Shown: one piece after another, positions 1 through 32,000 of the stretch
Position numbering within the stretch: position 1 is the stretch's first letter
How the letters are laid out: each line of letters opens with the position of its first letter
Assembly: GCF_000406145.1 (NCBI RefSeq)
Contig: NZ_CM001976.1
Location: 2,555,397-2,587,396, forward strand
Reading direction: 5' to 3'
From: Dickeya dadantii NCPPB 898
GTDB taxonomy: Bacteria > Pseudomonadota > Gammaproteobacteria > Enterobacterales > Enterobacteriaceae
DNA: 32,000 nucleotides
The notes under the pieces: generated by a model
Seen by the model: the letters and a program-made list of their open reading frames with translations, nothing else
Databases searched by the model: none
What the model was told of the DNA's origin: nothing
Translations under genes and position numbers: made by a program

Positions 1-2215
1 TTACGCCAACTAACTGATTTGCGCCAACTTTCTTGCACTCAGCCAAAACGTCGCCCGCTGGCACGCTTTCAGCCACCACCACAGCAATATCACGGCGATT
101 CGCCGGGAAACGGGAAATGTCCGCCGCCTCAGGCACCACGCGCTCGGCAAGCTTGTCCCACAGTACTTCAAACACCACGGTGCGCCCGTTAAGATCCAGC
201 TTGCGCTCCAGCTCCGGGTGAATCACACCGATATAACCGATGCGCTCGCCAGCCAGATAAATGGCCGCGGTCTGTCCCGGATGCAGCGCCGGATGACTCT
301 CAGCCCGGAACTCAAGTACAGACAGTTTCCCGGTCAATGCCAATACGGCTTCCAAATCGCCTTTCAAATCATAGAAGTCAACCGCCTGACGCGCCAGATC
401 CCAGTGTTCCTCGTACCGGGTGCCGGTAATCACGCCAGCCAGCATGGTTTCCTGACGCACACCCAAATCCGCGCGCTGATCCGGAACAAAGCGCAGGCCG
501 CTCTCAAACAGGCGCAGCCGGCTTTGCTGGCGGTTCTGGTTGTACACCACCGCACCCAGCAGACCGCTCCACAGCGACAGGCGCATCGCGGACATTTCCA
601 CCGAAATCGGACTCGGCAGAATCAGCGCATCTTCACCGGGGTGAATCAACGACTGGATTTTGGGATCGACGAAGCTGTAGGTAATCGCTTCCTGAAAGCC
701 GTGATCGACCAGCAGGGTTTTCACACGCTTAAGCGCCAGATCCGCCTCGCGATGTTGCGTCATCTTCAGCGGCGCCTGAGTAGGAATATTCGGAATGTTG
801 TTGTAGCCGTAAACACGCGCCACTTCTTCCACCAAATCTTCCTCAATCGCCATATCGAAACGCCAGCTCGGCGCCACCGCCTGCCAGCCATCGGCTGTCT
901 GGGTTACCTGGCAACCCAGACGATTCAGAATATCGCTGACTTTCTCATCGGAAATCACATGCCCGATCAAACGATCCAGCTTGTCGCGACGCAGTGCGAT
1001 GGTGGCGCGTACCGGCAGGTCTTTCTCGCTGACCGCCTCCACCACTGGGCCGGCTTCACCGCCGCAGATATCCAGCAGCAGGCGGGTTGCACGCTCCATC
1101 GCCTGATGCTGCAAGGCCGGGTCCACGCCGCGCTCATAGCGGTGCGACGCATCAGTATGCAGGCCGTAACGGCGCGCGCGCCCGGTGATCGACAGCGGAT
1201 TAAAGTAAGCGCACTCCAGCAGCACATCCTGCGTTTCGCCGTTCACGCCGGAATGTTCTCCGCCGAAGATGCCGCCCATAGCTAGCGCTTTTTGATGATC
1301 GGCAATCACCAGCGTGTCGGCGCTCAGGGTAGCGTCGGTGCCGTCCAGCAGACGCAGGGTTTCCCCTTCTTTTGCCATACGCACCACGATACCGCCTTCC
1401 AGACGGTTAAGATCGAACGCATGCATCGGCTGCCCCAGCTCCAGCAATACGTAGTTGGTGACATCCACCACCGGGTCGATAGAGCGAATACCGCAGCGAC
1501 GCAGTTTTTCGCGCATCCACAGCGGCGTGGCGGCCTTAACGTTGATCCCCTTGACCACTCGGCCCAGATAACGCGGGCACGCCTCGGTCGCGTCCACCTG
1601 AATCGGGAAACGATCGGCGATGGTCGCGGTCACCGGTTCAGTCGTCGGCGCAGTCAGCGCCAGTTCATTCAGCACCGCGACGTCACGCGCCACGCCCAGA
1701 ATCCCCAGGCAGTCAGCACGGTTCGGGGTCACGCTGATTTCGATGGTATTGTCATCCAGCTTCAGGTACTCGCGGATGTCGGTGCCGAGCGGCGCGTCAG
1801 CCGGCAATTCGATAATGCCGCTGTGATCGTCGGAGATCCCCAGTTCGGAGAAGGAGCACAGCATTCCTTCAGACGGTTCGCCACGCAGCTTGGCCGCCTT
1901 GATTTTGAAATCGCCCGGCAAAACGGCACCCACGGTAGCCACCGCTACTTTGAGGCCCTGACGGCAGTTAGGCGCGCCGCAAACGATATCCAGCAGACGA
2001 TCGCCGCCGACGTTGACTTTCGTCACGCGCAATTTGTCCGCGTTCGGATGCTGTGCGCACTCCACCACTTCCCCAACGACCACGCCGTGGAACGCGCCTG
2101 CAACCGGCTCAACGCCGTCCACTTCCAGACCGGCCATGGTGATTTGTTCAGATAAGGCATCGCTGCTGATGGCTGGGTTAACCCATTCCCGTAACCAGAG
2201 TTCACTGAATTTCAT
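1..2215 (-). CDS. pheT: phenylalanine--tRNA ligase beta subunit; N-terminal ~738 codons, with the 3' end beyond the window start
   Basis: Reverse-strand ATG at 2213-2215, 15 nt after the pheS stop. My translation [71 protein letters not shown] matches the enterobacterial PheT N-terminus. No minus ORF starting at 2215 is listed in the track, consistent with no in-window stop. The + ORFs 218-1285 and 1292-2155 are antisense shadows. Confidence 0.93.
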
Positions 2216-28801: not shown

Positions 28802-29029
28802 TTAACATTTTTCCAGAATCAAAATCTGCGCTTCGCCTTTGCGCACGCTGATCGCCGCGCCACGCAGGCGCAGCTCAATCGGGTCGCCCAACGGCGCCAC
28901 GCGCGACACCGAAAACTCCACCCCCGGCGTGACCCCCAGCGCCAACAGACGCTTGCGGTAATCCGCCGATCCTTTCTGAAACCCCAGCACACGCCACTGT
29001 GTGCCCACCGCCAATGCTTCCAGTGTCAT
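28802..29029 (-). CDS. feoA: FeoA-domain protein (feoB-proximal copy)
   Basis: 75 aa: MTLEALAVGTQWRVLGFQKGSADYRKRLLALGVTPGVEFSVSRVAPLGDPIELRLRGAAISVRKGEAQILILEKC. This is the typical FeoA SH3-like pattern. The stop lies 22 nt before the feoB ATG. Confidence 0.85.
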   Translation of the reverse strand: MTLEALAVGTQWRVLGFQKGSADYRKRLLALGVTPGVEFSVSRVAPLGDPIELRLRGAAISVRKGEAQILILEKC

Positions 29030-29151
29030 CGCTGTGTTGACCTCATACCTATTGTTGCGTCTGTTGCGTCAGAGTAACGACCGTTGTCGTGAACCCGTAG
29101 TTATCAAATGATGGTCATAAACCTGTGGTTATAAACCGATAGTTAGGCTGA

Positions 29152-29391
29152 TTATTGCTGCGGCGACACCCACACCTGCTTGCCCATCTCCCAGTTGATC
29201 GCCACCCGGCTGTCGCCGGAGGCCAGCATCAACGGCTGATTGGCGTCGCGCTGAATCACGCGCACCTGCCCGCCGACGCGGATGCCAAGCTCGGTCAGCC
29301 GCTGCTGGTATTCGCCTGTCGAACGAATTCGCGCCACCACGGCATTCACGTTAAGGGGGAGATCAAGCAGCGTTTGAAGACTCAGGGCCAT
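29152..29391 (-). CDS. feoA: second FeoA-domain protein (promoter-proximal copy)
   Basis: From the ATG at 29389-29391 (AAGGA 8 nt upstream): MALSLQTLLDLPLNVNAVVARIRSTGEYQQRLTELGIRVGGQVRVIQRDANQPLMLASGDSRVAINWEMGKQVWVSPQQ (79 aa). It shows the same FeoA pattern (L..G.....R......RL..LG...G..v.v......P......g..iai......i.V). The track start is a TTG 13 codons upstream. Confidence 0.75.
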   Translation of the reverse strand: MALSLQTLLDLPLNVNAVVARIRSTGEYQQRLTELGIRVGGQVRVIQRDANQPLMLASGDSRVAINWEMGKQVWVSPQQ

Positions 29392-29459
29392 ACGACAATC
29401 CTTCACTGACAGTGTGCGGCATCCCGCCAACCCACTGGCGGTAATCCATCAAAGCAAGT

Positions 29460-29478
29460 AATAACGATTATCAATCAT
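29460..29478. promoter_or_regulatory. Fur box in the feo promoter
   Basis: The minus strand reads ATGATTGATAATCGTTATT. Compared with the Fur consensus GATAATGATAATCATTATC it matches 13 of 19 positions, with a perfect central TGATAATC. It lies 70-90 nt upstream of the first feoA. Confidence 0.6.
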
Positions 29479-29500
29479 ATTCTTGTTGACAAGCCGCCCC

Positions 29501-29514
29501 TTGACGCACGTCAA
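29501..29514. promoter_or_regulatory. FNR-type palindrome upstream of the Fur box
   Basis: TTGACGCACGTCAA compared with the FNR consensus TTGAT-N4-ATCAA matches 8 of 10 positions and is perfectly symmetric. It sits within the longer palindrome CCCTTGACGCACGTCAAGGG. E. coli feoABC is FNR-activated and Fur-repressed. Confidence 0.5.
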
Positions 29515-29691
29515 GGGAGGTGAAGATTGGGGGAGTGGTGGTAAGGTATGGGGTTTATGTGTGAAGCCACAGTAAGGAAAATTATGCTATCGGTTACGTC
29601 CCTGACGGTAGCAGAGCAAGGACAAATCGCCGCCACAGTTCATGCTGAAGGGCCGTTGGCTGAGAGACTGGATTCAGTTGAGATTATTATC

Positions 29692-30234
29692 ATGAGCAAA
29701 AAAAACACAGATATCAGTAAGTTTTTAAGTTACATATTACGCCATGAACCTGAAGTCATAGGTTTATCTTTGGACAAAGAAGGGTGGGCTATTATAAGCG
29801 ATCTTATCCTTTGCGCCGTTAAAGAAGGCTATACACTCGATAATAGTCTTATTCATAGTATCGTGGATAATAGTGATAAAAAACGCTTTACGATTTCAGA
29901 TGATGGATTACGTATCCGGGCAGCTCAAGGGCATTCATCGCAACAGGTAAATATAACGTATGAAGAAAAAATCCCTCCCGAGTTTTTATATCATGGAACT
30001 GCAACACGATTCCTAATATCAATTCGCGCTCAGGGATTACATGCAAAAGATCGACAATATGTCCATCTATCTGCCGATAAAGAGACAGCAATTCAAGTTG
30101 GAAGTCGGCATGGAAAACCGATTGCACTAAAAATAAAAGCCCTGACTATGTATGAACAGGGCTTTAAGTTTTATCAAGCAGACAATGCCGTCTGGCTAAC
30201 TGATTCTGCTCCCCATCAATACATTGATGAATAA
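29692..30234 (+). CDS. kptA: RNA 2'-phosphotransferase (Tpt1/KptA family)
   Basis: From the ATG at 29692: MSKKNTDISKFLSYILRHEPEVIGLSLDKEGWAIISDLILCAVKEGY...SDKKRFTISDDGLRIRAAQGHSSQQVNITYEEKIPPEFLYHGTATRFLISIRAQGL..DRQYVHLSADKETAIQVGSRHGKPIALKIKA...FYQADNAVWLT (180 aa). It is collinear with E. coli KptA (..[82 protein letters not shown]..), and the catalytic R-H...R...R residues are present. The frame is open upstream, so alternative starts are the ATG at 29584 (strong TAAGGA SD) or 29548. Confidence 0.87.
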   Translation: MSKKNTDISKFLSYILRHEPEVIGLSLDKEGWAIISDLILCAVKEGYTLDNSLIHSIVDNSDKKRFTISDDGLRIRAAQGHSSQQVNITYEEKIPPEFLYHGTATRFLISIRAQGLHAKDRQYVHLSADKETAIQVGSRHGKPIALKIKALTMYEQGFKFYQADNAVWLTDSAPHQYIDE

Positions 30235-30630
30235 CTATTCATTATCATCTGCCCGTTCAGCTTTATAACGGGCAGATTCCAGATGAGCTATTTTCAACCA
30301 TTCAGAAAAATTATCTGTGTAACCTCTGTTTTCCCAACCAGCGGCGGCAAAGGCATGAACATAGTATATCTTTGGATTACCAGATGTATCCTCGCCGTCA
30401 AAACAAACAATATCATCTGAGTAATTAATTTTGGCAAAAGGCACTAGCTTCCTATTAGGATATTTCGCCTTAACCTCATGCATCCAAAACACTGAAGACT
30501 CTTTAAATTCACAGATGAATGACCACGGTTCTATATCAGGAATAACATCTAAAGACATTATCTCCAGATAAAGATCCGGATATTTAAATCCATCAGGAAG
30601 ATCATCTTTTTTATATAAATAGCTATTCAT
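30235..30630 (-). CDS. cdiI: CDI immunity protein, SUKH / SMI1-KNR4-like
   Basis: 131 aa starting 3 nt after the cdiA stop, the typical cdiA-cdiI coupling. SUKH-type motifs are present: LPDGFKYPDLYLEIM near the N-terminus and RKLVPFAKINYSDDIVCFDGED...FSEWL. GC is low (about 35% by hand count of 30361-30420). Confidence 0.78.
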   Translation of the reverse strand: MNSYLYKKDDLPDGFKYPDLYLEIMSLDVIPDIEPWSFICEFKESSVFWMHEVKAKYPNRKLVPFAKINYSDDIVCFDGEDTSGNPKIYYVHAFAAAGWENRGYTDNFSEWLKIAHLESARYKAERADDNE

Positions 30631-30633
30631 TCC

Positions 30634-32000
30634 TTACTTCCCTTTTCCAGTTACTCTAGGTACATCATAAGAACCATAGGGATTCTTATCACCAAATCCT
30701 CCTGACTGTTTATTAATTCTTCCAGTTATTGCTTCCCCCCAAGTTTGGGGAATGAAATCACGTTTTCTATCCGAAAAGCGTTCAATCTCTGAAGATGTTA
30801 ACTTATCATCATAGCTTCTAACATTTGCTTCAACTCTAATCCCCGCATCTCTGGCAGCGCTGATCCGAGTATTATCCATACTTGTCATATTACCATCAGG
30901 CATTTTCACAACATCAACCGGATCCCCCTTCCAGCCATCTTTTCTCATGCTGGAAACAAGATCATCATAAGTGTATTTCACACCTGTACCTCGATCTGTT
31001 TTATTATTTGAAACTGTATTTTGTGAAAAGCGAATTTCGTTAGCATCAAAACTTGAGAGTGAACTATTGCCTGGTTTCGCAGTAGAGCCTTTATTCACTG
31101 CTGATTCTATCTGCATCCCTTTCATACCAACCAAAGCAATTGCGATCGCCTGCAACTGCATCGCCGTATCATACTGCGACGCCACTTCATCCCAGCCTTT
31201 TCCGGTTGATTTGGCTATGGCGGTAATGGCTGCATCGCGTGTGATGCTGCCTTCATCCAGCCCTTTCAGGATGGCGCTTGCATTAGCCGCGTCCTGCGGG
31301 TACAGGTCTTTGTAGATCAGACGGTAGCTCGCCGCACTCTCGCCATAACTATTCAGCGCCTGCTGCGCCTTTGCCACCAGTGCCGAGCAGGCCCCGCCTG
31401 ATTTGTTGCCCTGCGTACAGATATCGTGGATAGCCTGATCGCGATCTTTGTCCAGCTTGCGGGTATCCGCCAGCTCTTTGGCTTCGTCCGCCGTCAGTGT
31501 TCCGGCTTTCTCCTTACGCTCCAGATCGGCCTTCGTCTGAGCTTCTGTGGCGCTGAGATAGTTATTCTCCACCGCATTACGCCCGGCCTGCGCACCTGTC
31601 GCCGCACCGGTGGTGTTACCCGACGCAATCCCCGATGCCAGACCGGCCGCCAGCGAAGCCAGCGCGCTTACCGACTGTTTTTCCGCTTCAGTCAGGTCGC
31701 TGGTGTCCCGCCCTGAGTACAGCTCCTTCATGATCAGCAGCCGCGCCGTCAGTTCGCCGCCTGCTGCGCCCACTGCGCCCGCCACCGCATCCTTGCCGGA
31801 CAGTTGCGCCACCACCGCGCCCATCAGCGCATGCCCCATCGCGTTGGCCGCGATGTCCGATGCCGTGGCTTTACTCTCGTCCGCCGGCATCGTCACGCCT
31901 TTCACCAGCTGCGCCAGATACGGCGCCGACGCCCCGGCCAGCGCCTGCTGCAGGTTACCGCCGCCCGCACCGCGCGGATTTCGCCTTCGGTACGGACAAT
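30634..32000 (-). CDS. cdiA: contact-dependent inhibition exoprotein CdiA, C-terminal ~455 codons (the 5' end lies beyond the window)
   Basis: The frame is open to position 32000 by my codon-by-codon check of 31906-31998; the GTG 'start' in the track is internal. It contains a Gly/Ala-rich pre-toxin region (HALMGAVVAQLSGKDAVAGAVGAAGGELTARLL...SALASLAAGLASGIASG...GAQAGRNAVENNYLS). The VENN motif is followed by a 308-aa variable CdiA-CT. Confidence 0.9.
   Translation of the reverse strand, partial: CPYRRRNPRGAGGGNLQQALAGASAPYLAQLVKGVTMPADESKATASDIAANAMGHALMGAVVAQLSGKDAVAGAVGAAGGELTARLLIMKELYSGRDTSDLTEAEKQSVSALASLAAGLASGIASGNTTGAATGAQAGRNAVENNYLSATEAQTKADLERKEKAGTLTADEAKELADTRKLDKDRDQAIHDICTQGNKSGGACSALVAKAQQALNSYGESAASYRLIYKDLYPQDAANASAILKGLDEGSITRDAAITAIAKSTGKGWDEVASQYDTAMQLQAIAIALVGMKGMQIESAVNKGSTAKPGNSSLSSFDANEIRFSQNTVSNNKTDRGTGVKYTYDDLVSSMRKDGWKGDPVDVVKMPDGNMTSMDNTRISAARDAGIRVEANVRSYDDKLTSSEIERFSDRKRDFIPQTWGEAITGRINKQSGGFGDKNPYGSYDVPRVTGKGK
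31561..31572 (-). other. VENN motif marking the CdiA / CdiA-CT boundary
   Basis: The reverse complement of 31561-31572 is GTG GAG AAT AAC, encoding V-E-N-N in the context GRNAVENNYLS. Confidence 0.9.

Follow-up and report, generated by a model that had tools for sequence, protein, structure and literature searches.

A ParB/sulfiredoxin-fold CdiA toxin domain of Dickeya dadantii inherited with its immunity gene and an intact KptA/Tpt1: a candidate RNA 2'-hydroxyl kinase

The subject of this analysis is the C-terminal toxin domain of a CdiA protein of Dickeya dadantii NCPPB 898, encoded together with an immunity gene (cdiI) and a kptA gene near one end of a 32,000-nucleotide stretch of contig NZ_CM001976.1, hereafter referred to as the window. 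The closest described systems are the Tox-ParBL1 family and ToxB. As described by Zhang et al. (2012, Biol Direct 7:18, PMC3482391), Tox-ParBL1 is a predicted toxin family typified by a MafB toxin of Neisseria gonorrhoeae (NGK_2271). HHpred linked it to ParB with a probability of 93%, and its hallmarks are a Ser conserved near the N-terminus and, in place of DGHHR, an [NT][RT][RT] motif whose Arg is conserved; its members are delivered by type V, type VI or type VII secretion systems or as MafB proteins, and are neutralised by Imm-SUKH (or Imm44). The same study proposed a nuclease role by default, made no mention of KptA/Tpt1, and was the only work in the literature searched to name Tox-ParBL1 as a toxin. 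ToxB, the subject of a May 2026 preprint (bioRxiv 10.64898/2026.05.05.722872), is a CdiA C-terminal region (CdiA-CT) with the ParB-CTPase fold which serves as an ATPase (ATP Kd ~87 µM; ~300 ATP hydrolysed per hour), needs R108 of its G-N-H-R motif, is occluded by an iToxB dimer, and causes nucleoid collapse; it was found via PF02195, was reported as rare (52 species), and is described there with KptA unmentioned.

Two further groups of enzymes are relevant to the comparison. Sulfiredoxin (Srx), SerK and SbnI, which share the ParB/Srx fold but are not CTPase clamps, are phosphotransferases that depend on ATP or ADP. KptA/Tpt1 transfers RNA 2'-phosphate to NAD+, and in archaea the kinase ArkI writes an internal tRNA 2'-phosphate which KptA then removes at the expense of NAD+, a mark that E. 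coli KptA also erases in vivo (Ohira et al. 2022, PMC9095486).

By comparison with these systems, the principal finding from the window locus and its relatives is that toxin, immunity protein and intact KptA/Tpt1 are inherited as a three-gene module. A toxin-anchored survey, in which 185,579 species genomes were scanned with the toxin-only pattern DNTR[IV]xAAR[ED], yielded 80 loci spanning the Gamma-, Beta- and Alphaproteobacteria, Bacteroidota and Firmicutes, within which partner genes were sought by tblastn using the CdiI and KptA of the window. Every one of the 80 loci contained a SUKH homologue, which in 78 came immediately after the toxin (L042 and L056 displaced; L074 and L059 elsewhere), and a KptA homologue was located approximately 10–150 nt from the immunity gene in 74, being full-length in 69; the other KptA cases comprised two genes cut by contig ends, three degraded genes, one remote fragment only and five loci with none. 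Orientation of kptA was convergent in 51 loci, mostly from Proteobacteria and Bacteroidota, and co-directional in 24 (Lacrimispora, Anaerocolumna, Bacillus, Listeria, Enterococcus, Clostridium, some Pasteurellaceae and Aeromonas), a count that includes one remote fragment. When all open reading frames (ORFs) of the 80 loci were clustered, and ligase, 2H and macro domains sought, no other conserved neighbour family was found.

Pairwise toxin and KptA identities were correlated (r 0.75, Mantel p 0.001, 64 loci) to an extent equal to the toxin–immunity correlation, and the linkage persisted down to ~38% toxin identity and ~32% KptA identity. Cassette KptAs retained the full two-lobe architecture, and in 26 of them R17, H18, R65 and R121 were invariant, residues which we take to be the published Arg-His-Arg-Arg catalytic tetrad. 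Individual replicons illustrated the arrangement: on the Bacillus mycoides plasmid pl391 the toxin gene was followed by that of a hypothetical protein, and then by an annotated 'RNA 2'-phosphotransferase' gene overlapping it by 8 nt, while on Burkholderia ambifaria pBMC401 cdiA was followed by a small ORF and a convergent kptA. An orphan cassette downstream of a cdiA gene consisted of the same three genes, KptA included. A functional coupling of toxin to KptA is considered very probable. Within the literature searched (KptA/Tpt1, toxins, contact-dependent inhibition, ParB, effectors and kinases; a scope that did not extend to Burroughs & Aravind 2016 and Aravind et al. 2015), no report of a toxin–KptA link or of a 2'-kinase role was found, and both the toxin–immunity–KptA module and the 2'-kinase reading are presented here as new.

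A reciprocal, KptA-anchored survey of the best 80 metagenome loci by KptA match, 61 of which had at least 800 nt of downstream sequence, recorded a SUKH gene in 27 of the 61 and a toxin in 22, the fraction rising to 8/10 for KptAs at least 68% identical to that of the window. In five of these metagenome loci (L088 3550-3942, L145 3546-3959, L149, L112 and L113) KptA was accompanied by a convergent SUKH gene and no detectable toxin, pairs that look like orphan protective pairs. Among the remaining loci was the kptA of E. coli (L136; E. coli HS NC_009800.1 4564955-4568455), the product of which was 55% identical to cassette KptA. This gene stood alone between yjiH and yjiJ in almost every one of 5426 genomes, unaccompanied by a toxin or a SUKH gene, and could represent either stand-alone protection or an unrelated housekeeping function; a search of E. 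coli genomes at the DNA level with the cassette returned no match. On the phage-like C. difficile plasmid pZ1322PCD0028-2 (L168, 3001-5429), kptA was located near a gene for an ATP-dependent ligase domain, a repair-like context.

The KptA-anchored survey also revealed a second type of toxin among loci devoid of a SUKH gene. In L086, L114 (3984-4433), L119, L131 and L118 the CdiA C-terminus reads ANFAQ...TVDDLA.ALK.G.IKPSQLPVDYV..NGT.LILNTRTSTAL..AGIP, and is succeeded by an unrelated, non-SUKH ORF of ~145 aa in the immunity position and then by a convergent kptA. An alignment of 32 sequences of this second family (A5; proteins P0234-P0275) exhibited the same motif order, FAQ...DDL...VDYV...LNTRTS, and hhalign matched it to the first family with an E value of 0.0012 over 49 colinear columns. 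Its structural model (pLDDT 82) gave as its nine best Foldseek hits sulfiredoxin, ParB and KorB, the best at E 0.046 and none individually significant; the second type is probably a divergent ParB-like toxin. Of three contexts recovered by toxin similarity, two again showed toxin, immunity gene and then convergent kptA; in the third an insertion sequence element occupied that place. Because this second type, with its unrelated immunity protein, also precedes a convergent kptA, KptA follows the type of toxin rather than one particular immunity protein.

A profile of the window domain matched 1268 clusters (formed at 50% identity), including 835 with E<=1e-10, and among the 150 best representatives the domain was almost always situated at the extreme C-terminus. 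In 81 long members the Q of FSQ, the W of GW, D-N-x-R, one Ala and the W of TWGEA were invariant, and the S of FSQ, T of DNTR and R of AAR nearly so: these motifs are conserved far beyond chance. Pfam modules upstream of the domain in the same 81 proteins included PT-VENN, haemagglutinin repeats, RHS, PAAR, LXG, PT-HINT, PT-TG and T7SS-signal, and the domain is a warhead of polymorphic toxins whose carriers are CdiA, Rhs/PAAR, LXG and MafB proteins. The family is widespread, with members in Neisseria, Pseudomonas, Enterobacterales, Bacillus, Listeria and Enterococcus. A match at E 1e-24 with 45–52% identity to the window domain was given by the C-terminus of N. gonorrhoeae MafB class 3, a relative that may or may not be NGK_2271 itself. 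The N-terminal Ser (in FSQ), D-N-T-R, a downstream SUKH immunity gene, the C-terminal position, the varied carriers and the predicted ParB fold are all shared with the family as described in 2012; the three-gene KptA module and the 2'-kinase reading stem from the present analysis, and the family has no Pfam model. One protein (P0085, 247 aa) had the toxin domain fused in frame to a SUKH-like immunity sequence, which could reflect an artefact of read-through or of assembly, or else a true toxin–immunity fusion. A fusion to KptA was ruled out in P0172, the one listed protein with additional C-terminal sequence, since the tail was of low complexity.

The last 141 residues of CdiA, encoded on the minus strand at 30637-31059, read in translation SSFDANEIRFSQNTVS...DNTRISAARDAGIRVEANV...GKGK (also quoted as SSFDANEIRFSQNTVS...SMDNTRISAARDAGIRVEANV...GKGK), in agreement with the sequence and position given in an earlier note on this DNA; the same note's numbering of these residues as 283-423 was counted from an internal GTG at 31905, and the frame is open to 31998 (-), which makes this the 3' end of a longer cdiA. 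An AlphaFold2 model of the domain built on an alignment of 40 homologues (A1) had a mean pLDDT of 89.3 and a pTM of 0.79, and the top 50 Foldseek matches in the PDB (best E 7e-4, probability ~1) all belonged to the ParB/Srx superfamily: ParB of Myxococcus, Caulobacter and Bacillus, plant and human sulfiredoxin, SbnI, Noc, KorB, PadC, Atu1540, SerK and pNOB8 ParB. No classical nuclease fold was present among those 50. The corresponding TM-scores were modest, ~0.37 over 85–145 columns, because the superposition was limited to a core of ~90 residues. In sequence searches the domain gave zero matches in Pfam, in NCBIfam and, as a single sequence and as a profile, in PDB sequences, and PF02195 (ParBc) gave zero matches at E<=1 to the window domain or to any of 40 relatives. 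Weak matches to Transglut_core and Beta_helix (E>0.1) were dismissed as noise.

Alignment by hhalign, profile to sequence, placed TSMDNTRISAA on ISEGNHRMVAA of ToxB. A further hhalign comparison placed SMDNTRISAARDAGI on VAGERRFRAAKLAGL of Bacillus subtilis Spo0J, with DNTR on GERR (E 0.004, 85 columns), an equivalence treated as a lead only. DNTR aligns with the GxxR position, its Arg conserved and its Gly replaced by an invariant Asp; the invariant D-N-T-R probably sits where ParB, Srx and ToxB bind nucleotide phosphates, and nucleotide binding is predicted for the present domain. The domain, of ~140 aa, ends the protein with nothing after the fold, and a ParA-binding motif, a helix-turn-helix and a C-terminal dimerisation domain are all absent: it is a minimal ParB/sulfiredoxin-fold enzyme devoid of DNA-binding or dimerisation domains, and not a partition protein. 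We regard the ParB/Srx fold together with Tox-ParBL1 membership as highly likely, a call that is not new, fold and family both having been predicted in 2012 (Zhang et al. 2012, PMC3482391).

The earlier note had thus read the ParB/Srx motif order correctly, and the structure prediction and Foldseek comparison that it had proposed placed the domain in that superfamily rather than in an unrelated fold; its observation that DNTR replaces DGHHR fits the [NT][RT][RT] motif of Tox-ParBL1, and the ParB-like toxin domains that it mentioned from surveys of polymorphic toxins proved to include this very family, which was in effect rediscovered. Its statement that no ParB-like toxin was biochemically defined has been made outdated by the ToxB ATPase preprint of May 2026. 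Its aside, that phosphotransfer onto RNA would suit the adjacent KptA, is the strongest lead to have emerged: this gene is a conserved part of the cassette, with both types of toxin. The catalytic activity itself is a prediction.

In several respects the window domain resembles ToxB: each is a CdiA-CT that lies after VENN, has the ParB fold in minimal form, lacks a DNA-binding domain and is followed by a small immunity gene, the P-motif Arg essential in ToxB is conserved here, and the Asn is common to GNHR and DNTR. By way of contrast, ToxB is detectable with PF02195 whereas the window domain is not, the motif differs by G to D and H to T, Tox-ParBL1 comprises 1268 clusters as against the 52 species reported for ToxB, no KptA has been reported with ToxB, and the immunity proteins, an iToxB dimer and a SUKH-type CdiI respectively, are set apart by description. 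With all filters off, the Tox-ParBL1 profile failed to detect four ToxB fragments (E>0.1; the first 112 residues of four proteins in the preprint supplement), and the hhalign alignment to ToxB was confined to 13 motif columns; because of both results the window domain is judged to be built on the same scaffold as ToxB and not to be a member of the ToxB family. KptA was not found near an orphan ToxB-like fragment on a Pantoea plasmid, a single case and hence a very weak control.

The account that we favour, at a probability of roughly 0.45, is that the toxin is a nucleoside triphosphate (NTP)-dependent RNA 2'-OH kinase. The delivered domain would use an NTP, probably ATP as with Srx, SerK, SbnI and ToxB, and would phosphorylate the ribose 2'-OH of an essential RNA, for example tRNA or rRNA, thereby blocking translation. 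In the producer, CdiI would block the toxin by binding, while KptA would deploy NAD+ to remove such 2'-phosphates as were made, and could also protect against non-cognate toxin variants; KptA would consequently serve as a second, enzymatic immunity factor, and the cassette-linked bacterial KptA would gain a natural substrate. The chemistry of KptA, the occurrence of phosphotransferases within the ParB/Srx fold and the ArkI/KptA precedent together make this the simplest account.

ArkI and KptA constitute the same kind of writer/eraser pair as is proposed for toxin and KptA, although ArkI was first assigned to the protein kinases (AQ578 family) and compared with these, and so is not a ParB-fold protein, its mark stabilises tRNA and is non-toxic, and no delivery is involved. 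Similarly, Srx, SerK and SbnI share with the window domain the ParB/Srx fold indicated by Foldseek, a single-domain structure and, as proposed here, the ATP/ADP-driven phosphorylation of an acceptor, but their acceptors are a protein sulfinate or free serine rather than RNA, they are only 12–17% identical to it, and they are not toxins. Precedents for a linked enzyme that reverses the covalent modification made by a toxin, besides or in place of inhibition by binding, are provided by Tre1-Tri1 and DarT-DarG, in which ADP-ribosylation is reversed via ADP-ribosylhydrolase (ARH) or macro-domain enzymes; the candidate eraser here differs as an ADP-ribosyltransferase (ART)-fold 2'-phosphotransferase encoded by a separate third gene. 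It is conceivable, if somewhat short of an even chance, that the Tox-ParBL1 proteins would be the first toxins to kill by ATP-dependent RNA 2'-phosphorylation, with KptA as eraser of the damage, as a second immunity in producers and possibly as stand-alone protection.

Alternative explanations differ principally in what they make of KptA. Were the domain simply to hydrolyse ATP or another NTP in the manner of ToxB, with no specific phosphoryl acceptor, KptA would be unrelated to its action; ToxB is indeed also a ParB-fold CdiA-CT, dependent on R108 and converting ATP to ADP only, and the N and R of its GNHR are kept in DNTR. Outside that motif, however, no sequence similarity to ToxB was detectable, the immunity family, by description, is not that of ToxB, and the linkage of KptA across phyla and across two toxin/immunity types is left unexplained, KptA being unmentioned in the ToxB preprint: we consider such an NTPase unlikely. 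Rather unlikely too is a metal-dependent nuclease, the 2012 default for ParB-type toxin domains, for which KptA would help to heal RNA ends carrying 2'-phosphates. It was favoured by Zhang et al. (2012, PMC3482391) since nucleases dominate polymorphic toxins, and KptA has been discussed in the literature within RNA end-healing pathways; yet a repair gene such as an RNA ligase or a 2H phosphoesterase is not conserved in the cassettes, removal of a 2'-phosphate does not rejoin a cut RNA, the top 50 Foldseek matches consisted only of ParB/Srx-fold NTP-binding proteins and kinases, and the original claim of ParB nuclease activity was disputed by those same authors (PMC3482391).

A kinase acting on a small molecule, by phosphorylation of NAD(H) or a different nucleotide cofactor at its 2'-OH, would equally give KptA a phosphate to remove. 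SerK and SbnI, of the same fold, phosphorylate free serine, and Tpt1 is reported to move the 2'-phosphate of NADP(H) to NAD+ (PMC10622864); as inferred from that reaction, however, KptA would spend one NAD+ for each NADP+ reverted and so would not restore the NAD+ pool, and the cassette KptAs keep the two-lobe architecture and residues of the RNA enzyme, such that this variant appears distinctly improbable. Another adduct on RNA or some other target, for example by nucleotidyl or pyrophosphoryl transfer, with KptA handling a secondary product, gains some plausibility from the several NTPs bound by ParB-fold proteins, and nucleotidyl transfer had been raised in the earlier note; the first step of KptA, however, needs a phosphate monoester to attack NAD+, neither a diester nor a pyrophosphate is a known substrate, and the idea is accorded a very low likelihood. 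That KptA is a mere passenger, adjacent by shared descent and with no functional tie to the toxin, is lower still in our estimation: the cassettes are homologous and horizontally mobile, some toxin loci are without KptA and many KptAs are solitary, but the linkage has outlasted sequence divergence, change of orientation, several delivery systems and the formation of orphan cassettes, it extends to the second toxin type with its unrelated immunity protein, no other neighbour is conserved, and the catalytic residues of KptA are intact.

Several observations nevertheless weigh against an RNA 2'-kinase. Tox-ParBL1 members are known from sequence and prediction alone, and ToxB, the sole characterised ParB-fold CdiA toxin, gave only hydrolysis of ATP to ADP in vitro (bioRxiv 10.64898/2026.05.05.722872). 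The Gly of GxxR is replaced by Asp in a domain for which nucleotide binding is itself a prediction, and the second toxin type is assigned to its fold with low significance (Foldseek E 0.05). In N. gonorrhoeae, the species of the family type member, MafB3 has a SUKH gene and no adjacent KptA: in strain 2022NG-0032 (L164, 2382-4282) the gene for MafB class 3, with its Tox-ParBL1 C-terminus, precedes a 123-aa SUKH gene, immediately after which comes another mafB, with no KptA within 3.5 kb. (PLSDB lists the L164 record, a 2.17-Mb chromosome, among its plasmids.) Some five further toxin loci of the 80 also lack KptA, and because of these and MafB3 an adjacent KptA is judged dispensable for self-protection. 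Many KptAs, conversely, are solitary, as in the E. coli yjiH-kptA-yjiJ arrangement, or occur with a ligase in repair-like phage contexts, and the cassettes are homologous, so that the 80 loci are not independent events. Finally, since Tpt1 also acts on NADP(H) and 5'-phosphate ends, the lesion could be something other than a 2'-phosphate inside an RNA.

Were the RNA 2'-kinase reading correct, its implications would extend beyond this locus. We know of no natural substrate for bacterial KptA/Tpt1, a position unchanged since 1998. According to recent Tpt1 papers, no internally 2'-phosphorylated RNA is known from bacteria, and tools for detecting such RNAs are under development; a KptA-tied toxin family distributed across phyla would offer a concrete source of them, and would render the question directly testable. 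RNA 2'-phosphorylation would then be a new toxic mechanism, the range of activities recently demonstrated for the ParB fold (CTPase switch, ATPase toxin, protein and amino-acid kinases) would be extended to RNA, and the long-unexplained bacterial KptA/Tpt1 would become an eraser of toxin damage, with stand-alone innate protection a possibility in E. coli.

The features of the window region are collected in Table 1. The VENN motif is the marker of the start of CdiA-CT, and a VENN-delimited CdiA-CT followed by its cognate immunity gene, the arrangement that identifies a CDI system, was found in the window; the CdiA N-terminal two-partner secretion domain, haemagglutinin repeats and cdiB would lie beyond the window end, and are present in related loci. 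The match of cdiI to SMI1_KNR4 in Pfam had an E value of 1.7e-5 (25.8 bits versus a cut-off of 25.4). Isoelectric points of ~8 for the toxin and 4.7 for the immunity protein are typical of such a pair, and uninformative as to target.

Table 1. Coordinates of the cdiA, cdiI and kptA features, numbered from the first nucleotide of the window.
Feature	Position	Strand	Basis or comment
cdiA 3' end	30637..31998	-	Frame open to window end; stop codon 30634-30636; 454-aa fragment
PT-VENN pre-toxin domain (PF04829)	31552..31701	-	Pfam E 7.4e-21; residues 100-149 of the 454-aa fragment
DUF6862 (PF21726) segment of CdiA-CT	31342..31545	-	Pfam E 2.5e-9; upstream of the catalytic domain
Tox-ParBL1-type toxin domain, ParB/Srx fold	30637..31059	-	AlphaFold2, Foldseek, related clusters
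R-F-S-Q motif, first strand	31021..31032	-	S nearly invariant, Q invariant; N-terminal Ser defining Tox-ParBL1
D-N-T-R motif	30865..30876	-	D, N and R invariant; aligned with ParB GxxR (Box II / P-motif) and ToxB GNHR
T-W-G-E-A helix motif, family-specific C-terminal extension	30730..30744	-	W invariant
cdiI, 131-aa SUKH (SMI1/KNR4) immunity protein	30235..30630	-	Starts 3 nt past the cdiA stop
kptA, Tpt1 family, NAD+-dependent RNA 2'-phosphotransferase	29692..30234	+	PTS_2-RNA (PF01885) E 4.6e-46, full length
Low-GC island (kptA, cdiI and toxin catalytic domain)	29650..31100	.	GC 0.33-0.43 versus flanks 0.55-0.69

Because the low-GC island covers exactly kptA, cdiI and the toxin catalytic domain, these three elements are one acquired module. 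The DUF6862-containing segment, which may be the entry region, had a host-like GC content of 0.55–0.62, as in the flanks, compared with 0.33–0.43 in the toxin domain, and at ~31100, inside CdiA-CT, the GC content stepped from ~0.40 to ~0.58. As this step falls between the DUF6862-containing segment and the catalytic domain, it suggests that the swapped module was joined by recombination within the CT rather than at VENN. The stop codons of the convergent kptA (TAA, 30232-34, +) and cdiI (TAG, 30235-37, -) abut with zero spacer; no terminator-like hairpin was seen between the two genes, for which reason their transcripts would overlap, and a scan of 29400-30700 for promoters and terminators returned sites no more numerous than in shuffled sequence.

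The remainder of the window is enterobacterial core: pheS, thrS, an IclR-type regulator gene, oligogalacturonate lyase, icd, mnmA, purB, phoPQ and feoA-feoA-feoB. Next to pheS, at 218-2155 (+), are two long ORFs (355 and 287 aa) without a Pfam match, which are probably shadow ORFs, since pheT is expected there on the minus strand. Tandem FeoA-domain genes (75 and 92 aa) occupy 28802-29430 upstream of feoB, and the kptA-cdiI-cdiA module is inserted directly beside this feo iron-transport operon.

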